DNA of 64,000 nucleotides from Escherichia coli (GTDB lineage: Bacteria; Pseudomonadota; Gammaproteobacteria; Enterobacterales; Enterobacteriaceae), in NCBI RefSeq assembly GCF_013315695.1, contig NZ_CP054353.1; one strand, 5' to 3'. Positions 15,749 through 57,233 of this stretch are shown in pieces; the stretch's first letter is position 1; each line of letters starts with the position of its first letter. Below the pieces are notes generated by a model, which saw only the letters and a program-made list of their open reading frames with translations, ran no database searches and was not told where the DNA came from. A program made the position numbers and the translations under genes.

Positions 15749-16030
15749 GCCATTATGTCTCCTGCCGTAATCCGATGCTTTTGTCGGTCACTTTTGTTTA
15801 TTTCTTTTGGTAAAGAAAATGTTATGCATTTGTTGCGTATCATTATGCAACCTTAACCATGAATTTAGTTAGCAGGAAAATGGTTATTGAGGAGCTTAAG
15901 GATAAATTTCTGGTAAGGAGGACACGTATGGAAGTAGGCAAGTTGGGGAAACCGTATCCGTTGCTGAATCTGGCATATGTGGGAGTATAAGACGCGCAGC
16001 ATCGCATCAGGCATTTTTTTCTGCACCAAT

Positions 16031-16062
16031 GCAAAAAGGCCATCCTGACGGATGGCCTTCTG
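16031..16062 (-). terminator. rRNA operon terminator downstream of 5S rRNA
   Basis: Minus-strand hairpin aaggccatcc-gtca-ggatggcctt followed by U-run. Confidence 0.7.
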
Positions 16063-16071
16063 CTTAATTTG

Positions 16072-16191
16072 ATGCCTGGCAGTTCCCTACTCTCGCATGG
16101 GGAGACCCCACACTACCATCGGCGCTACGGCGTTTCACTTCTGAGTTCGGCATGGGGTCAGGTGGGACCACCGCGCTAAGGCCGCCAGGCA
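16072..16191 (-). rRNA. rrfG: 5S ribosomal RNA
   Basis: 120-nt match (reverse complement) to E. coli 5S rRNA; tgcctggcggcc...gggaactgccaggcat. Confidence 0.95.
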
Positions 16192-16285
16192 AATTCTGTT
16201 TATCAGACCACTTCTGCGTTCTGATTTAATCTGTTATCAAGCTTACTTATCGATGTCTCTTCCGCCAAAACATCTTCGGCGTTGT

Positions 16286-19189
<2,904 letters not shown>

Positions 19190-19383
19190 TCACAACCCGA
19201 AGATGTTTCTTTCGACTCATCATCGTGTTGCGAAAATTTGAGAGACTCACGAACAACTTTCGTTGTTCAGTGTTTCAATTTTCAGCTTGATCCAGATTTT
19301 TAAAGAGCAAATATCTTAAACATGACTCGTAAGTCATCTTTAACGATATTAAGGTCGGTGACTTTCACTCACAAACCAGCAAG

Positions 19384-19459
19384 TGGCGTCCCCTAGGGGA
19401 TTCGAACCCCTGTTACCGCCGTGAAAGGGCGGTGTCCTGGGCCTCTAGACGAAGGGGAC
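19384..19459 (-). tRNA. gltW: tRNA-Glu (anticodon UUC) in 16S-23S spacer
   Basis: Reverse complement matches GTCCCCTTCGTCTAGAGGCCCAGGACACCGCCCTTTCACGGCGGTAACAGGGGTTCGAATCCCCTAGGGGACGCCA. Confidence 0.95.
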
Positions 19460-19544
19460 GTATCAGTCTGCTTCGCAAGACGCCTTGCTTTTCACTTTCT
19501 ATCAGACAATCTGTGTGAGCACTTCAAAGTACGCTTCTTTAAGG

Positions 19545-21086
<1,542 letters not shown>

Positions 21087-21210
21087 AAAAGTTTGATGCT
21101 CAAAGAATTAAACTTCGTAATGAATTACGTGTTCACTCTTGAGACTTGGTATTCATTTTTCGTCTTGCGACGTTAAGAATCCGTATCTTCGAGTGCCCAC
21201 ACAGATTGTC

Positions 21211-21230
21211 TGATAAATTGTTAAAGAGCA
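21211..21230 (-). promoter_or_regulatory. rrn leader boxA antitermination element
   Basis: Reverse complement reads TGCTCTTTAACAATTTATCA. Confidence 0.7.
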
Positions 21231-21259
21231 GTGCCGCTTCGCTTTTTCTCAGCGGCGCG

Positions 21260-21296
21260 GGGTGTGCATAATACGCTTTCCCGCTACAGAGTCAAG
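21260..21296 (-). promoter_or_regulatory. rRNA operon P2 promoter
   Basis: Minus-strand -35 TTGACT and -10 TATTAT with 16-bp spacer. Confidence 0.7.
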
Positions 21297-21374
21297 CATT
21301 TATTTTTGCTTTCTCTGCCGGAATTCTCAGGAGAACCCCGCTGACCCGGCGGCGTGTTTGCCGTTGTTCCGTGT

Positions 21375-26075: not shown

Positions 26076-26813
26076 ATGACGCGCATGAAATATCTGGTGG
26101 CAGCCGCCACACTAAGCCTGTTTTTGGCGGGTTGCTCGGGGTCAAAGGAAGAAGTACCTGATAATCCGCCAAATGAAATTTACGCGACTGCACAACAAAA
26201 GCTGCAGGACGGTAACTGGAGACAGGCAATAACGCAACTGGAAGCGTTAGATAATCGCTATCCGTTTGGTCCGTATTCGCAGCAGGTGCAGCTGGATCTC
26301 ATCTACGCCTACTATAAAAACGCCGATTTGCCGTTAGCACAGGCTGCCATCGATCGTTTTATTCGCCTTAACCCGACCCATCCGAATATCGATTATGTCA
26401 TGTACATGCGTGGCCTGACCAATATGGCGCTGGATGACAGTGCGCTGCAAGGGTTCTTTGGCGTTGACCGTAGCGATCGCGATCCTCAACATGCACGAGC
26501 TGCGTTTAGTGACTTTTCCAAACTGGTGCGCGGCTATCCGAACAGTCAGTACACCACCGATGCCACCAAACGTCTGGTATTCCTGAAAGATCGTCTGGCG
26601 AAATATGAATACTCCGTTGCCGAGTACTATACAGAACGTGGTGCATGGGTTGCCGTCGTTAACCGCGTAGAAGGCATGTTGCGCGACTACCCGGATACCC
26701 AGGCTACGCGTGATGCGCTGCCGCTGATGGAAAATGCATACCGTCAGATGCAGATGAATGCGCAAGCTGAAAAAGTAGCGAAAATCATCGCTGCAAACAG
26801 CAGCAATACATAA
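26076..26813 (+). CDS. bamD: Outer membrane protein assembly factor BamD (TPR lipoprotein)
   Basis: 245 aa; lipoprotein signal LFLAGCSG; TPR-like repeats. Confidence 0.95.
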
Positions 26814-26850
26814 CAAAAACCTGAAACACAAAACGGCAGCCCTTGAGCTG

Positions 26851-28276
26851 TAATGCCGATCAGTTAAGGATCAGTTGACCGATCCAGTGGCTGTGTAAGA
26901 ATCCGGAAACGCTCACTTGTTTCCGGATTTTTTTATGCACATTGGACAGGCTCTTGATCTGGTATCCCGTTACGATTCTCTGCGTAACCCACTGACTTCT
27001 CTGGGGGATTACCTCGACCCCGAACTCATCTCTCGTTGCCTTGCCGAATCAGGTACTGTAACGCTACGCAAGCGCCGTCTTCCCCTCGAAATGATGGTCT
27101 GGTGTATTGTTGGCATGGCGCTTGAGCGTAAAGAACCTCTTCACCAGATTGTGAATCGCCTGGACATCATGCTGCCGGGCAATCGCCCCTTCGTTGCCCC
27201 CAGTGCCGTTATTCAGGCCCGCCAGCGCCTGGGAAGTGAGGCTGTCCGCCGCGTGTTCACGAAAACAGCGCAGCTCTGGCATAACGCCACGCCGCATCCG
27301 CACTGGTGCGGCCTGACCCTGCTGGCCATCGATGGTGTGTTCTGGCGCACACCGGATACACCAGAGAACGATGCAGCCTTCCCCCGCCAGACACATGCCG
27401 GGAACCCGGCGCTCTACCCGCAGGTCAAAATGGTCTGCCAGATGGAACTGACCAGCCATCTGCTGACGGCTGCAGCCTTCGGCACGATGAAGAACAGCGA
27501 AAATGAGCTTGCTGAGCAACTTATAGAACAAACCGGCGATAACACTCTGACGTTAATGGATAAAGGTTATTACTCACTGGGACTGTTAAATGCCTGGAGC
27601 CTGGCGGGAGAACACCGCCACTGGATGATACCTCTCAGAAAGGGAGCGCAATATGAAGAGATCAGAAAACTGGGTAAAGGCGATCATCTGGTGAAGCTGA
27701 AAACCAGCCCGCAGGCACGAAAAAAGTGGCCGGGACTGGGAAATGAAGTGACAGCCCGCCTGCTGACCGTGACGCGCAAAGGAAAAGTCTGCCATCTGCT
27801 GACGTCGATGACGGACGCCATGCGCTTCCCCGGAGGAGAAATGGCGGATCTGTACAGTCATCGCTGGGAAATCGAACTGGGATACAGGGAGATAAAACAG
27901 ACGATGCAACTGAGCAGGCTGACGCTGAGAAGTAAAAAACCGGAGCTTGTGGAGCAAGAGCTGTGGGGTGTCTTACTGGCTTATAATCTGGTGAGATATC
28001 AGATGATTAAAATGGCGGAACATCTGAAAGGTTACTGGCCGAATCAACTGAGTTTCTCAGAATCATGCGGAATGGTGATGAGAATGCTGATGACATTGCA
28101 GGGCGCTTCACCGGGACGTATACCGGAGCTGATGCGCGATCTTGCAAGTATGGGACAACTTGTGAAATTACCGACAAGAAGGGAAAGGGCCTTCCCGAGA
28201 GTGGTAAAGGAGAGGCCCTGGAAATACCCCACAGCCCCGAAAAAGAGCCAGTCAGTTGCTTAACTGACTGGCATTA
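26851..28276 (+). mobile_element. Insertion sequence IS4 (1426 bp) with imperfect terminal inverted repeats
   Basis: Left end taatgccgatcagttaagg, right end gcttaactgactggcatta; single transposase ORF; length matches IS4; no flanking direct repeat. Confidence 0.9.
26935..28263 (+). CDS. insG: IS4 transposase (DDE)
   Basis: 442 aa from [14 protein letters not shown]; matches remembered IS4 transposase. Confidence 0.9.
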
Positions 28277-28303
28277 CAGCCTTCGGGCTGGCATTTTTTA
28301 TGG
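28277..28303 (+). terminator. Orphan plus-strand hairpin + T-tract abutting IS4 right end (likely terminator of an absent rightward-reading gene, eno in K-12 order)
   Basis: cagcc-ttcg-ggctg followed by gcatttttta; no plus-strand gene upstream in window. Confidence 0.4.
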
Positions 28304-28308
28304 TTGAG

Positions 28309-29181
28309 TTACCAGCGACCGGACGCGCCGCCACCGCCAGAAGAACCGCCCCCGCCGCTAAATCCGCCGCCACTTGAGCCGCCACCGGAACCGCTGTTGT
28401 CTGAATGATAACTTCTACCAGATGCTTTTTTCTGAAGTACACATAAACAGGTAAAGACCATAATGGTGGTGAAAGTAAAAAAGAAGAAAAATACAGCAAT
28501 GGAAAAAGTTTTATCGGAGAACAGGAATAAATCTAAAAGATAGATTGCTGAAATACAGACACTGCTTTTACATGCGCGACAAAAATTACTGCCTTGATGA
28601 AAAAACCAGAAAGGGAAGAACATCACTGCAAATACCCAAAAAATAGCAAAGTAATAATGATCACTGGAAGACGCTGATTCAATTTCTGAAGGATTAGCCG
28701 GATATTGGTGTTGTGAAGTGAGTTGGTTATTCAAAGCGTTTATAGCTAGCTCTAATCCCTGAGCTAATTTTTGTTGTTTAAATGCGGGTATCATGTTGCT
28801 ACGGATGATATCTCCAGCCAGAGCATCGGTTACCTTTTCTTCCAGCCCATAACCTACCTGGATGCGGACAGTGCGATCCGACCAGGCAACAATGATCAGT
28901 ATCCCATCATTGCGTTTGGCATCTCCTAAACGCCAATTGTTAAAAACCCTTGTAGCATATTGTTCAATTGTCTCGTCTTTGGTTGTGGGAATAATTAATA
29001 CAGCAATTTGTACTTGGGTATTATTGAAAATAGATTCTAACTTCCGCGTCAGTTCTTTCTTTTCTTGTGAGTTTAAGCTACTCGTAAGATCCGTAACTTG
29101 TTGCTGTAATTGTGGGACAATAGTTGGTTGGGCTGCAACAAAGGAACACACGAATGTGAATATTAGTATGAAATAGCGCAT
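28309..29181 (-). CDS. ygcG: TPM-domain (YgcG-family) membrane protein with Gly/Ser-rich C-terminal tail
   Basis: 290 aa from [19 protein letters not shown] (signal peptide); TM segment; C-terminal [23 protein letters not shown] tail. Confidence 0.8.
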
Positions 29182-29474
29182 TATAAATGTCCCATTAAAG
29201 CTGGATAAATAAATTGACGGCGGCATCGGTAATTTGAGATTCGTTATAATTAAAAACGAACACAGAAAAAATAAGTATAATTTCGGTGAATGTTTTTGAC
29301 ATGATTAAATCCCTTTACTTTATTTATTTCTGACATAATACGTTACTTCCTTTTATTATTAACGATCTGTTTCTCATTTTTCTTTAAACCTGCCTGTAAC
29401 AGAATGTTAATAAGACATGATTGTTGTGGCAGGATCTGCAATAATTAACAATTATCCACTTCACAGAGAATGCT

Positions 29475-30485: not shown

Positions 30486-31307
30486 GTGTTCCCCGCGCCA
30501 GCGGGGATAAACCAAATACAGGACCAATATTTTGATATATATAATCGTGTTCCCCGCGCCAGCGGGGATAAACCGGTGATTCTGGCAATACTGGCACTTC
30601 CGTTTTGGTGTTCCCCGCGCCAGCGGGGATAAACCGGGCGGTTAACTGGTCCTGTGCGGATATGCGCTGTGTTCCCCGCGCCAGCGGGGATAAACCGATG
30701 TGGAAAGGCGAGCTGAGGGTGGCCTACGCGTGTTCCCCGCGCCAGCGGGGATAAACCGGCTGAGGAAATTGCTAAACCCTCGCAGGATCCGTGTTCCCCG
30801 CGCCAGCGGGGATAAACCGTTGCCGGTACAGCTCCAGCATTAATCCCCACCGTGTTCCCCGCGCCAGCGGGGATAAACCGTTGCGACGTGGTGCGCGCTC
30901 GAGCACAACGTTGTGTTCCCCGCGCCAGCGGGGATAAACCGATGTAAACCCCTCGCGCATCGAGTCAAATGTCGTGTTCCCCGCGCCAGCGGGGATAAAC
31001 CGCCACCTCAGCCTGCGCGCCCGCTGAATATTCCGTGTTCCCCGCTCCAGCGGGGATAAACCGGGACGCGTTCCATCAGGGCGGGTCCAGGGAATGTGTT
31101 CCCCGCGCCAGCGGGGATAAACCGCAGGCGGCGCAGTGGCGCATGAATCCGTTCGCGTGTTCCCCGCGCCAGCGGGGATAAACCGGAGTTTGTGAATTTA
31201 ACAGAATTCCGCGCCCGGTGTTCCCCGCGCCAGCGGGGATAAACCAGCCAATTGCCATATATGCCATCGCCAGCAGCCGTGTTCCCCGCGCCAGCGGGGA
31301 TAAACCA
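30486..31307 (+). CRISPR. Type I-E CRISPR array, 14 repeats / 13 spacers (distal array between queE and ygcE)
   Basis: 29-bp repeat GTGTTCCCCGCGCCAGCGGGGATAAACCG at exact 61-bp period from 30486 to 31279; 32-bp unique spacers; repeat 10 has GCTCC variant; repeats 1, 13, 14 end in A. Confidence 0.97.
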
Positions 31308-47906: not shown

Positions 47907-48008
47907 ATGGACAAAAGCCCCAGGCGATATTTCTATCAACCTGAGGCCAGCGTTCGAACCCAAACAATTCGAATGTTAGTCTCTTCTTTGCAGGGAGGCA
48001 AGACATGC
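47907..48008 (+). CDS. mok-like leader ORF translationally coupled to hok-like toxin
   Basis: 33-codon ORF ([34 protein letters not shown]) whose stop overlaps the toxin start (ATGcTGA). Confidence 0.4.
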
Positions 48009-48157
48009 TGACAAAATATGCCCTTGTGGCAATCATAGTGCTGTGTTTTACAGTACTGGGATTCACGCTGATGGTAGGCGACTCGTTGTGTGAGTTGAGT
48101 ATCAGAGAACGTGGTATGGAGTTTAAGGCGGTTCTCGCTTACGAATCGAAGAAGTAG
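48005..48157 (+). CDS. Hok/Gef-family type I toxin (50 aa)
   Basis: [50 protein letters not shown]; single TM helix then conserved SLCE...AYES periplasmic motif; RBS agggagg 7 nt upstream; below 60-aa cutoff of ORF track. Confidence 0.8.
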
Positions 48158-48351: not shown

Positions 48352-51051
48352 ATGCGTAAATATCCTTTAAGTTTACTGAAGGATAAAAATATTGTGACTT
48401 TTTTTGATTTCTGGGGAAAAACCCGACGCGGCGAGAAAGACGGGGGCGACGACTATCACCTTCTTTGCTGGCATTCGCTGGATGTAGCCGCGATGGGCTA
48501 TTTAATGGTTAAAAGCAATTGCTTCGGACTGGCTGACTATTTTCGTCAATTAGGTTTCGCTGACACGGAGCTGGCAGCACAATTTTTCGCCTGGCTGCTG
48601 TGCTGGCACGATATTGGAAAATTTGCCCGCTCTTTTCAGCAACTTTACCTGCACCCACAACTCAAGGTTCCGGAAGGCGCAAGAAAGAATTACGAAAAGA
48701 TCTCTCATTCAACGCTGGGCTACTGGTTGTGGAACCATTATTTAAGTGAATGTCAGGAGTTGCTTCCTTCATCTTCACTCTCTCCGCGCAAACTTAAACG
48801 GGTGATGGAGATGTGGATGCCCATGACTACCGGGCATCATGGTCGACCCCCTGAGCGTATGGATGAACTGGATAATTTTCTGCCTGAAGACAAAGGTGCC
48901 GCACGAGATTTTCTCCTTGCAATCAAGGTACTGTTTCCGCTCATAGAGATCCCCACATTCTGGGATGATGACGAGGGCGTTGAACTTATAAAACAACTTT
49001 CCTGGTATATCTCTGCAACCGTCGTACTTGCAGACTGGACGGGATCGTCAACGCGATATTTTCCACGCGTCGCACAGACAATGGATATTGAAGATTACTG
49101 GCAGAAAACTTTAGTTCAGGCTCAAAACGCCTTAACCGTCTTTCCTCCAAAAGCAGAAAGCGCGCCTTTCACCGGAATTAATACGCTGTTTCCTTTTATT
49201 GAGAATCCGACACCGCTACAGCAAAAGGTGCTGGATCTGGATATCAGCCAGCCGGGACCACAGTTATTTATTCTGGAGGATGTAACCGGCGCAGGTAAAA
49301 CAGAAGCGGCGCTTATCCTGGCGCACAGGTTGATGGCTGCGGGGAAAGCGCAGGGTTTGTTTTTTGGCCTGCCAACAATGGCAACGGCCAATGCCATGTA
49401 CGATCGACTGGTCAAAACCTGGCTTGCTTTCTATTCGCCAGAGTCCCGCCCCAGCCTGGTGCTGGCACACAGTGCCCGAACATTAATGGACCGCTTTAAT
49501 GAATCACTCTGGTCCGGTGATTTAGTCGGGTCAGAAGAACCGGATGAACAAACGTTCAGTCAGGGATGTGCGGCCTGGTTTGCCGACAGTAACAAGAAGG
49601 CGCTACTGGCTGAAATTGGCGTCGGCACGCTGGATCAGGCGATGATGGCTGTGATGCCGTTCAAACATAATAATCTGCGGCTTCTGGGACTGAGTAACAA
49701 AATCCTGCTGGCTGATGAGATCCATGCCTGTGACGCTTACATGTCATGCATTCTTGAAGGGCTGATCGAGCGGCAGGCGCGTGGCGGAAACAGCGTCATT
49801 TTGCTTTCTGCCACGTTATCTCAACAGCAGCGCGACAAACTCGTTGCTGCCTTTGCGCGTGGTATAGAGGGCCAGCAAGAAGCTCCGTTCCTGGAAAAGG
49901 ATGATTACCCCTGGCTGACGCACGTTACGAAATCCGATGTGCATTCACACCGGGTAGCGACGCGCAAAGACGTTGAGCGCAGCGTGAGTGTGGGTTGGCT
50001 TCATAGCGAACAAGAGTGTATTGCGCGTATCGAATCGGCGGTAAGTCAGGGGAAATGTATCGCCTGGATCCGAAATTCTGTCGATGACGCCATCCAGGTT
50101 CATCGTCAGTTACTTGCCCGCGGCGTCATTCCTGCTTCCAGCCTTTCACTTTTTCATAGCCGCTTTGCTTTTAGCGATCGCCAGCGAATTGAAACGGAGA
50201 CGCTGGCACGCTTTGGTAAAGAAGACTGTTCACAGCGTGCCGGAAAAGTCCTCATTTGTACTCAAGTCCTGGAGCAGAGCGTTGACTGCGACCTGGACGA
50301 AATGATTTCCGACCTTGCCCCTGTTGATTTACTGATCCAGCGAGCAGGGCGATTACAGCGACATATCCGCGATATGAATGGCCAGTTAAAGCGTGACGGT
50401 AAAGACGAGCGTCACCCTCCTGAATTGCTGATTCTGGCCCCCGTCTGGGACGACTCTCCGGGTGACGAATGGTTTGGCAGTGCCATGCGTAACAGTGCAT
50501 TTGTCTATCCCGATCATGGGCGAATCTGGCTGACGCAGCGTGTGCTGCGTGAGCAAGGTGCTATTCAGATGCCACACTCAGCCCGGCTTCTGATTGAATC
50601 AGTCTACGGTGAGGACGTAGTAATGCCGGAAGGGTTTGCCCGCAGCGAGCAGGAGCAAGTGGGCAAATATTACTGCGATCGCGCAATGGCTAAAAAGTTT
50701 GTACTGAACTTCAGGCCCGGCTATGCCGCCAATATCAACGATTACCTCCCGGAAAAACTGTCGACACGTCTGGCTGAAGAGTCTGTTTCCCTGTGGCTGG
50801 CTACCTGTATTGACGGTGTGGTGAAGCCTTATGCCACAGGTGCACACGCATGGGAAATGAGCGTTGTCAGAGTGCGCCGAAGCTGGTGGAAAAAACATCG
50901 GGATGAGTTTGCTTTACTGGAAGGGGATGCGTTCAGGCAGTGGTGCGTTGAACAGCGGCATGATCCGGAGATGGCAAACGTGATTTTAGTCACCGATGAC
51001 GAAAGTTGTGGGTATTCGGCTACGGAGGGATTGATTGGCAAGGTTGGTTGA
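48352..51051 (+). CDS. cas3: Cas3 HD-nuclease/helicase (type I signature protein)
   Basis: 899-aa ORF; HD motif LCWHDIGKF; helicase motif I TGAGKTEA, motif II DEIHA; position upstream of cse1; start codon uncertain. Confidence 0.9.
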   Translation: MRKYPLSLLKDKNIVTFFDFWGKTRRGEKDGGDDYHLLCWHSLDVAAMGYLMVKSNCFGLADYFRQLGFADTELAAQFFAWLLCWHDIGKFARSFQQLYLHPQLKVPEGARKNYEKISHSTLGYWLWNHYLSECQELLPSSSLSPRKLKRVMEMWMPMTTGHHGRPPERMDELDNFLPEDKGAARDFLLAIKVLFPLIEIPTFWDDDEGVELIKQLSWYISATVVLADWTGSSTRYFPRVAQTMDIEDYWQKTLVQAQNALTVFPPKAESAPFTGINTLFPFIENPTPLQQKVLDLDISQPGPQLFILEDVTGAGKTEAALILAHRLMAAGKAQGLFFGLPTMATANAMYDRLVKTWLAFYSPESRPSLVLAHSARTLMDRFNESLWSGDLVGSEEPDEQTFSQGCAAWFADSNKKALLAEIGVGTLDQAMMAVMPFKHNNLRLLGLSNKILLADEIHACDAYMSCILEGLIERQARGGNSVILLSATLSQQQRDKLVAAFARGIEGQQEAPFLEKDDYPWLTHVTKSDVHSHRVATRKDVERSVSVGWLHSEQECIARIESAVSQGKCIAWIRNSVDDAIQVHRQLLARGVIPASSLSLFHSRFAFSDRQRIETETLARFGKEDCSQRAGKVLICTQVLEQSVDCDLDEMISDLAPVDLLIQRAGRLQRHIRDMNGQLKRDGKDERHPPELLILAPVWDDSPGDEWFGSAMRNSAFVYPDHGRIWLTQRVLREQGAIQMPHSARLLIESVYGEDVVMPEGFARSEQEQVGKYYCDRAMAKKFVLNFRPGYAANINDYLPEKLSTRLAEESVSLWLATCIDGVVKPYATGAHAWEMSVVRVRRSWWKKHRDEFALLEGDAFRQWCVEQRHDPEMANVILVTDDESCGYSATEGLIGKVG

Positions 51052-51140
51052 GATGTCTGCGACAGGATTCTCTGAATAGTTGATACACAAAAAAGGATGG
51101 ACAACCGACCAGGGATGGTCTTTTTTACGAGAGGATGCGT

Positions 51141-52703
51141 ATGAACTCGTTTTCACTTCTGACAACCCCGTGGTTGCCTGTTCGTTTCAAAGACGGAACG
51201 ACAGGCAAGCTGGCATCAGTCGATCTGGCTGATGAGAATGTTGTCGATATCGCCGCACCGCGAGCAGATTTACAAGGTGCGGCCTGGCAGTTTTTGCTGG
51301 GACTACTACAAACCAGCTTCGCGCCAAAAGATCATCGTCGTTGGGATGATATCTGGGAAGACGGACTGGAAGCTGAAAAGCTACGAGAAGCATTGCTGTC
51401 TTTAGAACATGCTTTCCAGTTTGGGCCTGATTCATCTTCATTTATGCAGGATTTTGAGGCGCTCACGGGAGATAAAGTTCCGGTCGCTTCGCTACTGCCT
51501 GAGATTCCCGGCTCTCAAACGACGAAGTTTAATAAAGACCATTTTATCAAGCGGGGTGTAACGGAATATCTGTGCCCCCATTGCTTAGCATTGGCCTTGT
51601 TCTCTTTACAGTTGAATGCACCCGCGGGCGGCAAAGGCTATCGCACCGGTTTACGCGGCGGTGGGCCGATGACGACTCTCATTGAATTACAGGAATATCA
51701 GGGCAATCAACAAACACCCTTGTGGCGCAAACTGTGGCTCAACGTGATGCCGCAGGATGAAGCCGACTTACCGCTACCCAAAAAATTTGACGATCTGATT
51801 TTCCCCTGGCTAGGCCCGACGCGTACCAGCGAACTGGCCGGTGCGGTGGTAACCCATGATCAGGTCAATAAACTCCAGGCGTACTGGGGAATGCCGCGGC
51901 GTATACGTATTGATTTTAATACCACGACAGTCGGCAACTGCGATATTTGCGACGAGCAGAACGACGCGCTCCTGAGCCTGATGACGACCAAAAATTATGG
52001 TGCCAATTATGCCATGTGGCAGCATCCCTTAACGCCTTACCGTGTACCACTTAAAGAGGGTGGCGAGTTTTACTCCGTTAAACCACAACCGGGCGGTTTA
52101 ATCTGGCGCGACTGGTTAGGCCTTATCGAAACGGGTAAATCAGAAAACAATACGGAACTTCCCGCGCTGGTGGTGAAACTCTTTAATGCCAGCAGTCTGA
52201 AACAGGCAAAAGTGGGCCTATGGGGATTTGGTTATGATTTTGACAACATGAAAGCGCGCTGTTGGTACGAACACCATTTCCCGCTACTGCTCAATAAAAA
52301 AGAAGGCCAGATACCGAAGCTGCGGCTGGCTGCGCAAACGGCTTCACGGATTCTGAGTCTGTTACGGAGTGCATTGAAAGAAGCATGGTTCTCCGATCCA
52401 AAAGGTGCAAGGGGTGATTTCAGTTTTGTGGATATCGACTTCTGGAACAAAACTCAGCATCGCTTCCTGAGGTTAGTGCGCCAAATTGAAGAAGGTCAGG
52501 ATGCGGATGAATTACTCGGCAAATGGCAAAAGGAAATTTGGTTATTCGCGCGTCAGGATTTTGACGAGCGTGTATTCACTAATCCTTATGAGCCCGTTGA
52601 TTTGAAACGCGTCATGACCGCGCGCAAGAAATATTTTACAACATCGGCGGAGAAGCAAAGTGCTAAAGCCGCCAGGGAGAAAAAGCAGGAGGCTGCTGAA
52701 TGA
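51141..52703 (+). CDS. casA: Cascade large subunit Cse1 (CasA)
   Basis: About 520 aa; first gene of Cascade operon after cas3; RBS gagagga before ATG 51141 (alternative ATG 51135). Confidence 0.85.
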   Translation: MNSFSLLTTPWLPVRFKDGTTGKLASVDLADENVVDIAAPRADLQGAAWQFLLGLLQTSFAPKDHRRWDDIWEDGLEAEKLREALLSLEHAFQFGPDSSSFMQDFEALTGDKVPVASLLPEIPGSQTTKFNKDHFIKRGVTEYLCPHCLALALFSLQLNAPAGGKGYRTGLRGGGPMTTLIELQEYQGNQQTPLWRKLWLNVMPQDEADLPLPKKFDDLIFPWLGPTRTSELAGAVVTHDQVNKLQAYWGMPRRIRIDFNTTTVGNCDICDEQNDALLSLMTTKNYGANYAMWQHPLTPYRVPLKEGGEFYSVKPQPGGLIWRDWLGLIETGKSENNTELPALVVKLFNASSLKQAKVGLWGFGYDFDNMKARCWYEHHFPLLLNKKEGQIPKLRLAAQTASRILSLLRSALKEAWFSDPKGARGDFSFVDIDFWNKTQHRFLRLVRQIEEGQDADELLGKWQKEIWLFARQDFDERVFTNPYEPVDLKRVMTARKKYFTTSAEKQSAKAAREKKQEAAE

Positions 52704-53236
52704 GTATTGTAAAAGAGGAGCACAAAGCCACGCTGCGTAAATGGCACGAAGAGTTGCAGGAAAAACGCGGCAATCGTGCCAGTCTGCGGCGTAGCACAAC
52801 GGTTAATGATGTTTGTCTGTCAGAAGGTTTTCGTTCTCTGCTGATGCAGACCCACACGTTGTGGAAAATTGAATCACAGGAGTGGCGTTTTACCGCACTG
52901 GCGCTGGTTGCCGCCGTTGCCGCCAATGTAAAAGCCATTGATGAACGGCAGCCTTTTGCCGCGCAGTTGGCGGCGGTAATGTCTGAGGGGCGTTTTACTC
53001 GCCTGTCGGCAGTCAAAACGCCGGATGAATTACTGCGCCAGTTACGTCGCGCGGTCAAATTATTAAATGGTTCCGTCAATCTTATCTCTTTGGCAGACGA
53101 TATTTTCCGCTGGTGCCAGGAGAGTGACGACCTGCTCAATCATCACCGCCGCCAGCAGCGGCCAACAGAATTTATCCGTATCCGCTGGGCGCTGGAATAT
53201 TACCAGGCTGGCGACGCCGATAACGAACAAAATTAA
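52700..53236 (+). CDS. casB: Cascade small subunit Cse2 (CasB)
   Basis: 178 aa; ATGA overlap with casA stop; position between cse1 and cas7e. Confidence 0.8.
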   Translation: MSIVKEEHKATLRKWHEELQEKRGNRASLRRSTTVNDVCLSEGFRSLLMQTHTLWKIESQEWRFTALALVAAVAANVKAIDERQPFAAQLAAVMSEGRFTRLSAVKTPDELLRQLRRAVKLLNGSVNLISLADDIFRWCQESDDLLNHHRRQQRPTEFIRIRWALEYYQAGDADNEQN

Positions 53237-53250
53237 TAAAGGACTATCTC

Positions 53251-54306
53251 ATGACGACATTTATTCAGCTTCATTTGTTAACCGCTTACCCTGCTGCCAA
53301 CCTTAACCGTGATGACACCGGTGCGCCAAAAACTGTGGTACTGGGTGGAGCAACGCGTCTGCGCGTTTCCTCGCAAAGTCTGAAACGTGCGTGGCGCACT
53401 TCTGCACTTTTTGAACAGGCGCTGGCGGGCCATATTGGTATTCGTAGTGGGCGTATCGCGCGCGAGGCAGCAACTATCATGATTGAGAAAGGAATCGAAG
53501 AAAAAAAAGCCATCGAATGGGCGGCAGATATTGCCGATTATCTTGGTAAAGCCAAAAAAGACAAAAAACCAAAAGATCCGCTCACTAACGCTGAAACTGA
53601 ACAGCTCGTCCATATCAGCCCGGCAGAATTTGACGCCGTAAAAGCGCTGGCCCATCAACTGGCAGAAGAAAAGCGCGCGCCAAAAGAGGACGATCTCGCT
53701 TTGTTACGTAAAGATCGTATGGCGGTAGATATCGCCATGTTTGGTCGTATGCTGGCGAATAAACCCGAGTTTAATGTTGAAGCCGCCTGTCAGGTCGCGC
53801 ACGCGTTTGGTGTCAGTGAAACGATTGTCGAAGATGATTTTTTCACCGCCGTTGATGATTTGCGCCAGGCCTCTGAAGATGCTGGTGCAGGGCATCTTGG
53901 TGAAACTGGATTTGGTTCTGCGCTGTTCTACACCTATATCTGCATTGATAAAGATCTGCTGGTCGAAAACCTCGGCGGTGACGAAGCATTAGCTAATCAG
54001 ACCCTGCGCGCCTTTACGGAAGCAGCGTTTAAAGTTTCCCCAACCGGTAAACAAAACAGCTTTGCCAGCCGTGCCTACGCCTCCTGGGCGCTGGCAGAAA
54101 AAGGCACCGAACAACCGCGTTCTCTGGCGGCGGCTTTCTATGAACCCATTAATGGCACACGTCAGTTAGATGTGGCGGTGCAGCGTATTACAACGCTTCG
54201 CGAAAACATGAATACGGTTTACGAACAGAAGACCGAATGCGCAAGTTTTGACGTGATGAACAAACAGGGAAGCATGAAGGACGTGCTGGACTTTATCTGC
54301 GCGTAA
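53251..54306 (+). CDS. casC: Cascade backbone subunit Cas7e (CasC)
   Basis: 351 aa; N-terminus MTTFIQLHLLTAYPAANLNRDDTGAPK typical of Cas7e. Confidence 0.9.
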   Translation: MTTFIQLHLLTAYPAANLNRDDTGAPKTVVLGGATRLRVSSQSLKRAWRTSALFEQALAGHIGIRSGRIAREAATIMIEKGIEEKKAIEWAADIADYLGKAKKDKKPKDPLTNAETEQLVHISPAEFDAVKALAHQLAEEKRAPKEDDLALLRKDRMAVDIAMFGRMLANKPEFNVEAACQVAHAFGVSETIVEDDFFTAVDDLRQASEDAGAGHLGETGFGSALFYTYICIDKDLLVENLGGDEALANQTLRAFTEAAFKVSPTGKQNSFASRAYASWALAEKGTEQPRSLAAAFYEPINGTRQLDVAVQRITTLRENMNTVYEQKTECASFDVMNKQGSMKDVLDFICA

Positions 54307-54316
54307 GGGGCGGCTT

Positions 54317-55063
54317 ATGAGCCAATATCTGATTTTTCAGCTTCATGGGCCAATGGCATCCTGGGGCGTTGATGCACCCGGTGAGGTGCGTCATACCCAT
54401 GAACTGCCTTCGCGTTCAGCATTGCTGGGGCTGCTGGCTGCCGGGGTAGGGATACGGCGTGATGACACCGAATGCTTAAACGCGTTTAATCGCCACTATT
54501 CACTGGTGGTTTGCGCCAGCCGTAACCCGCGCTGGGCACGGGATTATCACACGGTCCAGATGCCAAAAGAGGTGCGTAAAGCGCGTTATTTCAGCCGTCG
54601 CGAAGAGTTGAGCGACCCTGATCTTCTAAGCGCGATTATCTCCCGGCGCGACTACTACACCGATGCCTGGTGGATGGTGGCCGTGGCAACAACAGCTGAT
54701 GCGCCTTACAGCCTCGAACAGTTGCAGGAAGGTTTACGCCATCCGGCTTTTCCGCTTTATCTGGGGCGAAAAAGCCATCCGCTGGCATTACCCCTTGCGC
54801 CGTTACTGCTTGAAGGTAACGCGTCTGATGCCTTACGTAACGCATACCAACAGTATCAGGATCGTTTCCACGAACTGAAAGTCTCACTCCCGAAACTTCA
54901 GGATGAATGCTGGTGGGAAGGGGAGCACGATGGCCTGGTCTCGAGCAAAATATTACGCCGCCGGGATGTTCCTTTAAATCGTCAGCAGTGGCTGTTTGGG
55001 GAACGCACCGTCAATCAGGGGCCGTGGCTCAGCAAGGAGGAACCATGTACCTCTCAAGAATAA
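54317..55063 (+). CDS. casD: Cascade subunit Cas5e (CasD)
   Basis: 248 aa; N-terminus MSQYLIFQLHGPMASWG...LLGLLAAGVGIRRDD typical of Cas5e. Confidence 0.9.
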   Translation: MSQYLIFQLHGPMASWGVDAPGEVRHTHELPSRSALLGLLAAGVGIRRDDTECLNAFNRHYSLVVCASRNPRWARDYHTVQMPKEVRKARYFSRREELSDPDLLSAIISRRDYYTDAWWMVAVATTADAPYSLEQLQEGLRHPAFPLYLGRKSHPLALPLAPLLLEGNASDALRNAYQQYQDRFHELKVSLPKLQDECWWEGEHDGLVSSKILRRRDVPLNRQQWLFGERTVNQGPWLSKEEPCTSQE

Positions 55064-55691
55064 CCTTACATACCGGTCAGCTTTCGCCTGCGCAGTTGCT
55101 GCATTTGGTGGATCGCGGTGAATATGTGATGCATCAGTGGCTGTGGGATCTTTTTCCTGGCGGCAAAGAAAGGCAATTTCTTTATCGTCGGGAAGAACTC
55201 CAGGGCGCGTTTCGCTTTTTTGTCCTGTCGCAGGAACGCCCGGCGGAAAGTGAAACGTTCACCATCGAATGCCGGTCATTTGCGCCTGAACTGCATACCG
55301 GACAATCCCTTTGTTTCAACCTGCGGGCGAATCCAACAGTCTGTAAAGCGGGTAAGCGCCACGATCTGCTGATGGAGGCGAAACGGCAGGTGAGGGGGCA
55401 GGCGGAAGGAAGAAATGTCTGGTTGCATCAACAACAGGCGGCGCTGGACTGGCTGGCAGCGCAGGGGGAGAGAAGCGGTTTTACACTGCTGGATACCTCG
55501 GTCGATGCCTACCGACAACAGCAACTGCGGCGGGAAAACTCCCGGCAACTGATCCAGTTCAGTAGCGTGGATTATACGGGGATGCTTACGGTCACCGATC
55601 CTGGGTTATTTCTGCAACGTCTGAGCCAGGGGTATGGCAAAAGCCGGGCGTTCGGTTGTGGTCTGATGCTGATCAAACCTGGAGCAGAGGC

Positions 55692-55695
<4 letters not shown>
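55045..55695 (+). CDS. casE: crRNA endoribonuclease Cas6e (CasE)
   Basis: 216 aa from MYLSRITLHTGQ after AGGAGG RBS; C-terminal Gly-rich loop GYGKSRAFGCGLM; overlaps casD 3' end. Confidence 0.85.
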
Positions 55696-56905
<1,210 letters not shown>

Positions 56906-57001
56906 GTTACCCGTTCTTTAAAAATAAGGAAAAGTTTGAATTTAGTTGGTAGATTGTTGTTGTGGAATAAAATTGTTTAAAAACAGATACGTATGCTTAG
57001 T
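56906..57001 (+). promoter_or_regulatory. CRISPR leader of cas-adjacent array
   Basis: A/T-rich 96 bp containing agttggtagattgttg motif shared with distal leader; directly precedes repeat 1. Confidence 0.6.
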
Positions 57002-57212
57002 GTGTTCCCCGCGCCAGCGGGGATAAACCGGCTGGGTACTAGCCAGGGTGAAAGGAAGTCACGTGTTCCCCGCGCCAGCGGGGATAAACCGTCGACAATG
57101 GATAAGTTGACTTCAGGTCTGGGGAGTTCCCCGCGCTAGCGGGAATAAACCGTGCAGTACGCCTGATGACAAACCAGGCATCGGGAGTTCCCCCGCGTCA
57201 GCGGGGAACTCC
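57002..57212 (+). CRISPR. Type I-E CRISPR array adjacent to cas2, 4 repeats / 3 spacers
   Basis: Repeats at 57002, 57063, 57124, 57185 (61-bp period); repeats 3 and 4 degenerate; spacers gctgggtactagccagggtgaaaggaagtcac, tcgacaatggataagttgacttcaggtctggg, tgcagtacgcctgatgacaaaccaggcatcgg. Confidence 0.9.
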
Positions 57213-57233
57213 CAGCTCCCATTTTCAAACCCA

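Follow-up and report, generated by a model that had tools for sequence, protein, structure and literature searches.

The locus lies in a 64-kb stretch of Escherichia coli DNA (hereafter the window), in which the intergenic region between bamD and ygcG (26814-28308) contains a complete IS4 element on the plus strand (26851-28276, 1426 bp). This region is bounded by the stop codon of bamD (ORF 26076-26813, plus strand), which is identical to and collinear with the annotated bamD of strain MSB1_4I and belongs to the side that keeps the K-12 orientation, and by the stop codon of ygcG (28309-29181, minus strand, the ORF ending at 28309), which is identical to the annotated ygcG of MSB1_4I and is the first gene of an inverted block. 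The original prediction had placed a complete IS4 between the bamD stop and the 3' end of ygcG, and comparison with the IS4 annotated in K-12 MG1655 (4502090-4503515) bore this out, the two elements being equal in length and differing at 4 of 1426 positions.

The IS4 element

An inverted-repeat search located the left and right inverted repeats of the element at 26851-26868 and 28259-28276, where TAATGCCGATCAGTTAAGG at 26851 pairs with the minus strand of 28258-28276 with three mismatches, so that the roughly 18-bp terminal inverted repeats are imperfect. The IS4 end sequence had just two matches in the 64-kb window, both corresponding to these terminal repeats, against a chance expectation of 0.01. 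The transposase gene (26935-28263, plus strand) is an intact insG-type ORF of 442 amino acids that matched the NCBIfam profile NF033592 (transpos_IS4_1, IS4 family transposase) with 304.5 bits (cut-off 115) and differs from K-12 InsG by two amino acids; RefSeq additionally annotates a 448-amino-acid form of the transposase starting at a TTG at position 26917. The window copy thus shares with the K-12 element (ISfinder IS4; insG) its length of 1426 bp, 99.7% identity, the terminal inverted repeats, and an intact 442-amino-acid DDE transposase. It is a known element (IS4 family, IS4 subgroup), and the locus presents neither a new element nor a new mechanism. The two copies differ in their surroundings: a 12-bp direct repeat, CAGAACCAAGAT, encloses the one in K-12, whereas the window copy has none, because each of its flanks stems from a separate insertion site.

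Inside the left end of the element, at 26897-26936 on the plus strand, an inverted repeat folds into a very stable hairpin (-22.3 kcal/mol, z -5.9) that is followed by a run of seven T residues and sits directly upstream of the transposase ATG. This structure looks terminator-like and would protect the transposase against transcription entering from outside. Given the state of the bamD terminator described below, the same hairpin probably now halts read-through from bamD, acting as a surrogate bamD terminator.

Flanks and terminators

The sequence to the left of IS4 reads ...aaaacggCAGCCCTTGAGCTG and that to the right CAGCCTTCGGGCTGgcatttttt..., with no direct repeat between them. As had been predicted, a target-site duplication (TSD) is missing, since the 14 nucleotides on the left (CAGCCCTTGAGCTG) and those on the right (CAGCCTTCGGGCTG) differ; a search of the window IS4 flanks for a degraded or shorter direct repeat likewise gave none, and the best relation between the two flanks was an imperfect inverted repeat. 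The further claim that the flanks are unrelated held only in part: they share no direct repeat, but they derive from two similar terminator palindromes, both of whose empty sites have the form AAA-N20-TTT, and it is this similarity that the imperfect inverted repeat reflects. The absence of a TSD marks recombination after insertion and is no argument against the element being IS4.

On the left, positions 26830-26850 (plus strand; aaaacgg followed by CAGCCCTTGAGCTG) correspond to the 5' part of the bamD terminator, as identified from the empty site in K-12, from the parental insertions, and from the loss of folding. The last 14 bp of this remnant (26837-26850) represent a single copy of the bamD-site TSD, known from parental insertions in strains 102651, 14EC007, and MSB1_4I. 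The intact terminator of K-12 reads aaaacggcagcccttgagctgccgttttttt, and the empty K-12 site, aaaacggCAGCCCTTGAGCTGccgttttttt, forms a strong intrinsic terminator with a folding energy of -17.3 kcal/mol (z -5.9). The left flank of the window has lost the 3' arm ccgttttttt, and what is left of the hairpin does not fold better than shuffled sequence does (-6.8 kcal/mol, z -0.4). The proposal that a terminator hairpin is represented on the left by its 5' half alone was thereby verified, the terminator being that of bamD.

On the right, positions 28277-28299 (plus strand) are the ygcG-proximal part of the bidirectional terminator shared by eno and ygcG, an assignment supported by the empty site in K-12, the parental insertion in MSB1_4I, the terminator-like site, and its fold. 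The flank opens with a copy of the eno/ygcG-site TSD (28277-28290, CAGCCTTCGGGCTG), a 14-mer that MSB1_4I has on both sides of its insertion, followed by gcatttttt. In K-12, the empty ygcG/eno site, aaaaaatgcCAGCCCGGAGGCTGgcattttt, is a bidirectional terminator with a folding energy of -20.3 kcal/mol (z -5.5), of which the right flank of the window retains the 5-bp core hairpin and the T-tract. A hairpin with a T-tract and no gene upstream to terminate had been described here, and this orphan structure is the distal part of the terminator of eno.

As for the two neighboring genes, bamD stands in the window without a terminator of its own, and ygcG is left with only the 5-bp hairpin and no T-tract on its strand. 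Since the simple parental insertions already show these two changes, we infer that the inversion itself adds no further local disruption.

Gene order and parental insertions

In K-12, bamD (b2595) is followed by raiA, and ygcG (b2778) adjoins eno about 170 kb away. The block from ygcG to truD in the window is inverted relative to K-12 and to bamD, in agreement with the gene order that the original prediction had given; the K-12 map and collinearity with MSB1_4I both support it. The visible part of the inverted segment (28277-64000, minus strand) comprises ygcG, yqcG, queE, a CRISPR array, ygcE through cysJIH, hok, cas3 to cas2, a further CRISPR array, iap, cysDNC, ygbE, ftsB, ispDF, and truD, and is collinear with positions 1146952-1182737 of MSB1_4I. 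GC skew is -0.052 to the left of IS4 and +0.037 to its right, a modest change of sign whose left value is largely driven by the rRNA operon; it is consistent with the right-hand block having flipped recently.

The genome of MSB1_4I (NZ_LR898874.1) carries both parental insertions, bamD-IS4-raiA and eno-IS4-ygcG. In the former, found also in strains 102651 and 14EC007, the TSD CAGCCCTTGAGCTG stands on both sides of the element, and in the latter CAGCCTTCGGGCTG does so, each being a perfect 14-bp repeat. The two MSB1_4I copies, at 1145526-1146951 (plus strand) and 1333811-1335236 (minus strand), lie in opposite orientation 186,859 bp apart, and neither shows any difference from the window IS4 over 1426 positions. 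The window matches MSB1_4I end to end over all 64 kb in two blocks that meet inside IS4: positions 1-28276 are the reverse complement of the bamD side of MSB1_4I including IS4, and positions 26851-64000 correspond to the MSB1_4I IS4 together with the ygcG-to-truD side. MSB1_4I is a near-clonal relative: outside the flanks of the junction, it departs from the window only within the rRNA operon and by one CRISPR unit. The left flank of the window IS4 is the TSD of the bamD site and the right flank that of the eno/ygcG site, one half coming from each parental site, and a crossover inside the two IS4 copies of MSB1_4I would yield exactly the window sequence. The crossover point within IS4 was sought and cannot be placed, because the parental copies are identical. 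Insertion of an IS into a DNA break without a TSD, as described elsewhere (bioRxiv 10.1101/2024.06.02.596822), was considered for this element and rejected, both flanks being exact TSDs of two pre-existing insertions.

Both IS4 copies in the uninverted arrangement of MSB1_4I were also found in OZ547117, Z226-1, and TCM3e1, so that the matches listed include at least four uninverted genomes with both parental insertions and one inverted genome. These genomes bear directly on whether the transposase itself could have made the inversion, a single IS4 having transposed replicatively, intramolecularly, and in inverted orientation into the other terminator, thereby creating the second copy and the inversion in one step. 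Such an event would leave the same arrangement of flanks, with one old TSD and one copy of the new target at each IS. It would, however, start from a single IS copy, whereas MSB1_4I has both, as do the other three uninverted genomes, and each copy in MSB1_4I has a complete TSD of its own. As both copies are present in an uninverted clone-mate, both predate the inversion in the window lineage. Moreover, the characterized transposases of the IS4 family, those of IS10 and IS50, act by non-replicative cut-and-paste, which also speaks against this route. We therefore regard a transposase-driven inversion as highly improbable, and homologous recombination, rather than the transposase, would have been used.

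An independent instance with its reciprocal joint

Among 5426 complete E. coli genomes, the bamD-IS4-ygcG joint was found in one, that of the enterotoxigenic (ETEC) strain TW10690 (NZ_CP127034.1), and a chimeric query of eno, IS4, and raiA recovered the reciprocal eno-IS4-raiA joint from TW10690 alone among the same 5426. The reciprocal joint reads eno...CAGCCTCCGGGCT-IS4-CAGCCCTTGAGCTGccgttttttt...raiA and the other joint bamD...CAGCCCTTGAGCTG-IS4-CAGCCTCCGGGCTGgcatttttt...ygcG, so that the TSD halves are exactly exchanged. About 170 kb from the first joint, the TW10690 chromosome holds nothing but prophage and island DNA in place of the reciprocal junction, as the inverted segment of this strain measures 236 kb; the two joints are 235,759 bp apart. 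In the source genome of the window, the corresponding eno-IS4-raiA joint would fall about 187 kb beyond the 64-kb window; the reciprocal product is documented in TW10690. Adjacency of bamD and ygcG without IS4, which the original prediction had named as a finding that would speak against it, occurred in none of 5425 complete E. coli genomes searched (0/5425).

The architecture of the bamD-IS4-ygcG joint in TW10690 is identical to that in the window, and the reciprocal joint has been demonstrated there, yet the two differ in several respects. TW10690 belongs to a different lineage, with 98.2% identity to the window over a 3.4-kb locus query; its IS4 allele differs from that of the window at nine positions; its eno-side TSD is 13 bp long rather than 14 bp; and its inverted segment of 235,759 bp includes prophage and island DNA. 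Together with the uninverted state of the window's clone-mate MSB1_4I, these differences in lineage, allele, TSD, and segment show the two inversions to be independent. On these comparisons, the same intra-replichore inversion of about 190-240 kb arose separately in two E. coli lineages.

The TW10690 genome also bears on the possibility that the window joint is an assembly artefact, the true arrangement being that of MSB1_4I and the identical inverted IS4 repeats having been traversed in the wrong combination. Given the 100% identity of the parental copies across 1426 bp, a misjoin would leave no trace in the sequence; the remainder of the window is identical to MSB1_4I; and short reads cannot resolve IS-flanked inversions (PMC5009759). 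The source, however, appears to be a finished genome, long reads routinely span repeats of 1.4 kb, and the same inversion is present in the independent assembly of TW10690, which was made with Flye from nanopore reads at >100x coverage (PMC10761095), so that at least this instance is unlikely to be a repeat misjoin. The source genome further differs from MSB1_4I by a CRISPR spacer and by rRNA microheterogeneity; these small differences mark it as a separate isolate, for which a rearrangement of recent date is plausible. On balance, an artefact seems unlikely, though the identity of the repeats lends it some weight, and we infer that the inversion took place in cells and not in the assembler.

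A third alternative is a mixed population, in which the segment flips measurably in culture and one of the two coexisting orientations ended up in the assembly. Two identical 1.4-kb repeats in inverted orientation can recombine reversibly, and the same inversion is seen independently in two lineages; even so, the inverted state is present in only one genome of the collection, although at least four others carry both copies. We give this explanation hardly any chance.

Proposed origin of the inversion

Very probably, the element at 26851-28276 is a recombinant IS4 sitting at one end of a roughly 187-kb inversion that extends from raiA to ygcG, and the inversion was most likely made by homologous recombination between two oppositely oriented IS4 copies, each residing in a terminator. 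In an ancestor, IS4 would have transposed independently into the bamD terminator and into the shared eno/ygcG terminator, each insertion generating a 14-bp TSD from the middle of the N20 of an AAA-N20-TTT site. The two ancestral copies would have been identical and oppositely oriented, and a single reciprocal homologous crossover within them, presumably RecA-dependent, would have flipped the intervening segment, leaving at both of its ends an intact IS4 with one TSD from each original site. Such a crossover history would explain why the window IS4 has no direct repeat, a half-terminator on its left, and an orphan hairpin with a T-tract on its right. A near-clonal genome shows the parental state, the flanks are exact matches to the parental TSDs, and another strain carries the reciprocal product. 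Recombination between two IS4 copies, giving an inversion whose breakpoints are bamD/raiA and ygcG/eno, was among the origins initially proposed, and the parental copies of MSB1_4I, the TSD halves, and the TW10690 joints all support it.

Recombination between inverted IS copies, a textbook process of known mechanism that the locus cleanly exemplifies, turns around the DNA between them and leaves both ends with a copy (PMC5009759). Inversions of this kind between copies of IS1, IS5, and IS150, in laboratory evolution of E. coli and in Shigella genomes, resemble the present one in their identical inverted copies, flipped segment, intact IS at each end, and exchanged TSD halves (PMC5009759). They differ from it in that both end points here are IS4 sites that recur across E. 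coli, and both are terminators. In K-12, IS4 is a low-copy, low-activity element, with one copy and no recombinations in a mutation-accumulation study (PMC5009759), unlike in the window lineage, where searches with IS4-containing queries gave up to about 18 matching places per genome.

IS4 target sites and recurrence

Counted directly on the K-12 sequence, the empty bamD site reads AAAA-CGGCAGCCCTTGAGCTGCCG-TTTT and the empty eno/ygcG site AAAA-TGCCAGCCCGGAGGCTGGCA-TTTT, both conforming to AAA-N20-TTT. The site of the K-12 IS4, AAA-CACCAGAACCAAGATGCCTA-TTT, also has 20 nucleotides between the runs, as at the bamD and eno/ygcG sites. At all three sites, the duplication is drawn from inside the N20, and at the two terminator sites it is centered. 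The consensus AAA-N20-TTT is reportedly the IS4 target described by Mayaux et al. in 1984; a literature search for it as the IS4 target consensus returned no match.

The duplication made by IS4 is usually quoted as 11-13 bp, and the parental 14-bp TSDs seen here are slightly longer, lying outside that range. With the standard boundaries of 1426 bp, TSDs measured 14 bp at both terminators, 13 bp at the eno/ygcG site of another lineage, and 12 bp in K-12, and all of them begin with CAG beside the right inverted repeat. A review of the IS4 family gives duplications only as "about 10 bp".

The bamD-IS4 junction was present in 335 and the IS4-ygcG junction in 74 of 5426 complete E. coli genomes, counts that come from junction-specific queries for one IS4 orientation and may combine hot-spot reuse with clonal inheritance. 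In strain WP8-S17-ESBL-05, the eno/ygcG insertion has a 13-bp repeat, CAGCCTCCGGGCT, and an IS4 allele with nine differences; the eno/ygcG site has therefore been struck independently at least twice.

The target preference of an IS can thus predetermine where large inversions fall, here through IS4 in two intrinsic terminators of the AAA-N20-TTT type. That a preference for terminator-type targets set up one large inversion twice is the single, mildly notable point of the locus. For annotation, the recombination accounts for an IS that lacks a target duplication and stands between a half-terminator and an orphan terminator, and comparative pipelines should expect a synteny break at the IS4 of the window clone. 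A bolder reading, in which the segment from raiA to ygcG is a recurrently and perhaps reversibly invertible block in IS4-carrying E. coli, maybe selected or serving as a population-level switch, strikes us as quite improbable. If it were true, the preference of IS4 for AAA-N20-TTT terminator palindromes would preset identical inversion end points in many lineages, and a flip might alter the replication orientation or dosage of rpoS, mutS, recA, and the cas and cys genes, which by the K-12 map presumably lie inside the inverted segment.

Other features of the window

Several further features lie within the inverted block. The small envelope-stress gene yqcG lies just upstream of ygcG (29195-29336, minus strand); the MSB1_4I annotation marks it as frameshifted and the window has the same sequence there, so it is probably a pseudogene in this clone. 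A toxin gene of the hok/gef family (about 48005-48157) adjoins an apparently complete type I-E cas operon from cas3 to cas2 (48352-56905), and one CRISPR array is located between queE and ygcE (about 30486-31307), a second one between cas2 and iap (about 56990-57230). The toxin gene, the cas operon, and both arrays all fall inside the inverted block, the coordinates of the toxin gene, the cas operon, and the queE-ygcE array having been transferred from the MSB1_4I annotation.

The cas2-iap array of the window is without one 61-bp repeat-spacer unit (about 57002-57091) that is found in MSB1_4I. The missing spacer, GATAACAAAGTTACGCCATCAGTTGAATATGT, is internal, the second from the leader; the difference was found by reading the sequence, and Tandem Repeats Finder returned nothing useful for this array. 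It looks like a spacer deletion between repeats, as opposed to an acquisition at the leader end.

On the bamD side, the other differences from MSB1_4I all fall within the rRNA operon between kgtP and clpB (15826-21322), where they form three patches, at about 15826-16273, 17709, and 20904-21322. Such clustering points to either gene conversion among rrn operons or differences in polishing, as opposed to point mutation.
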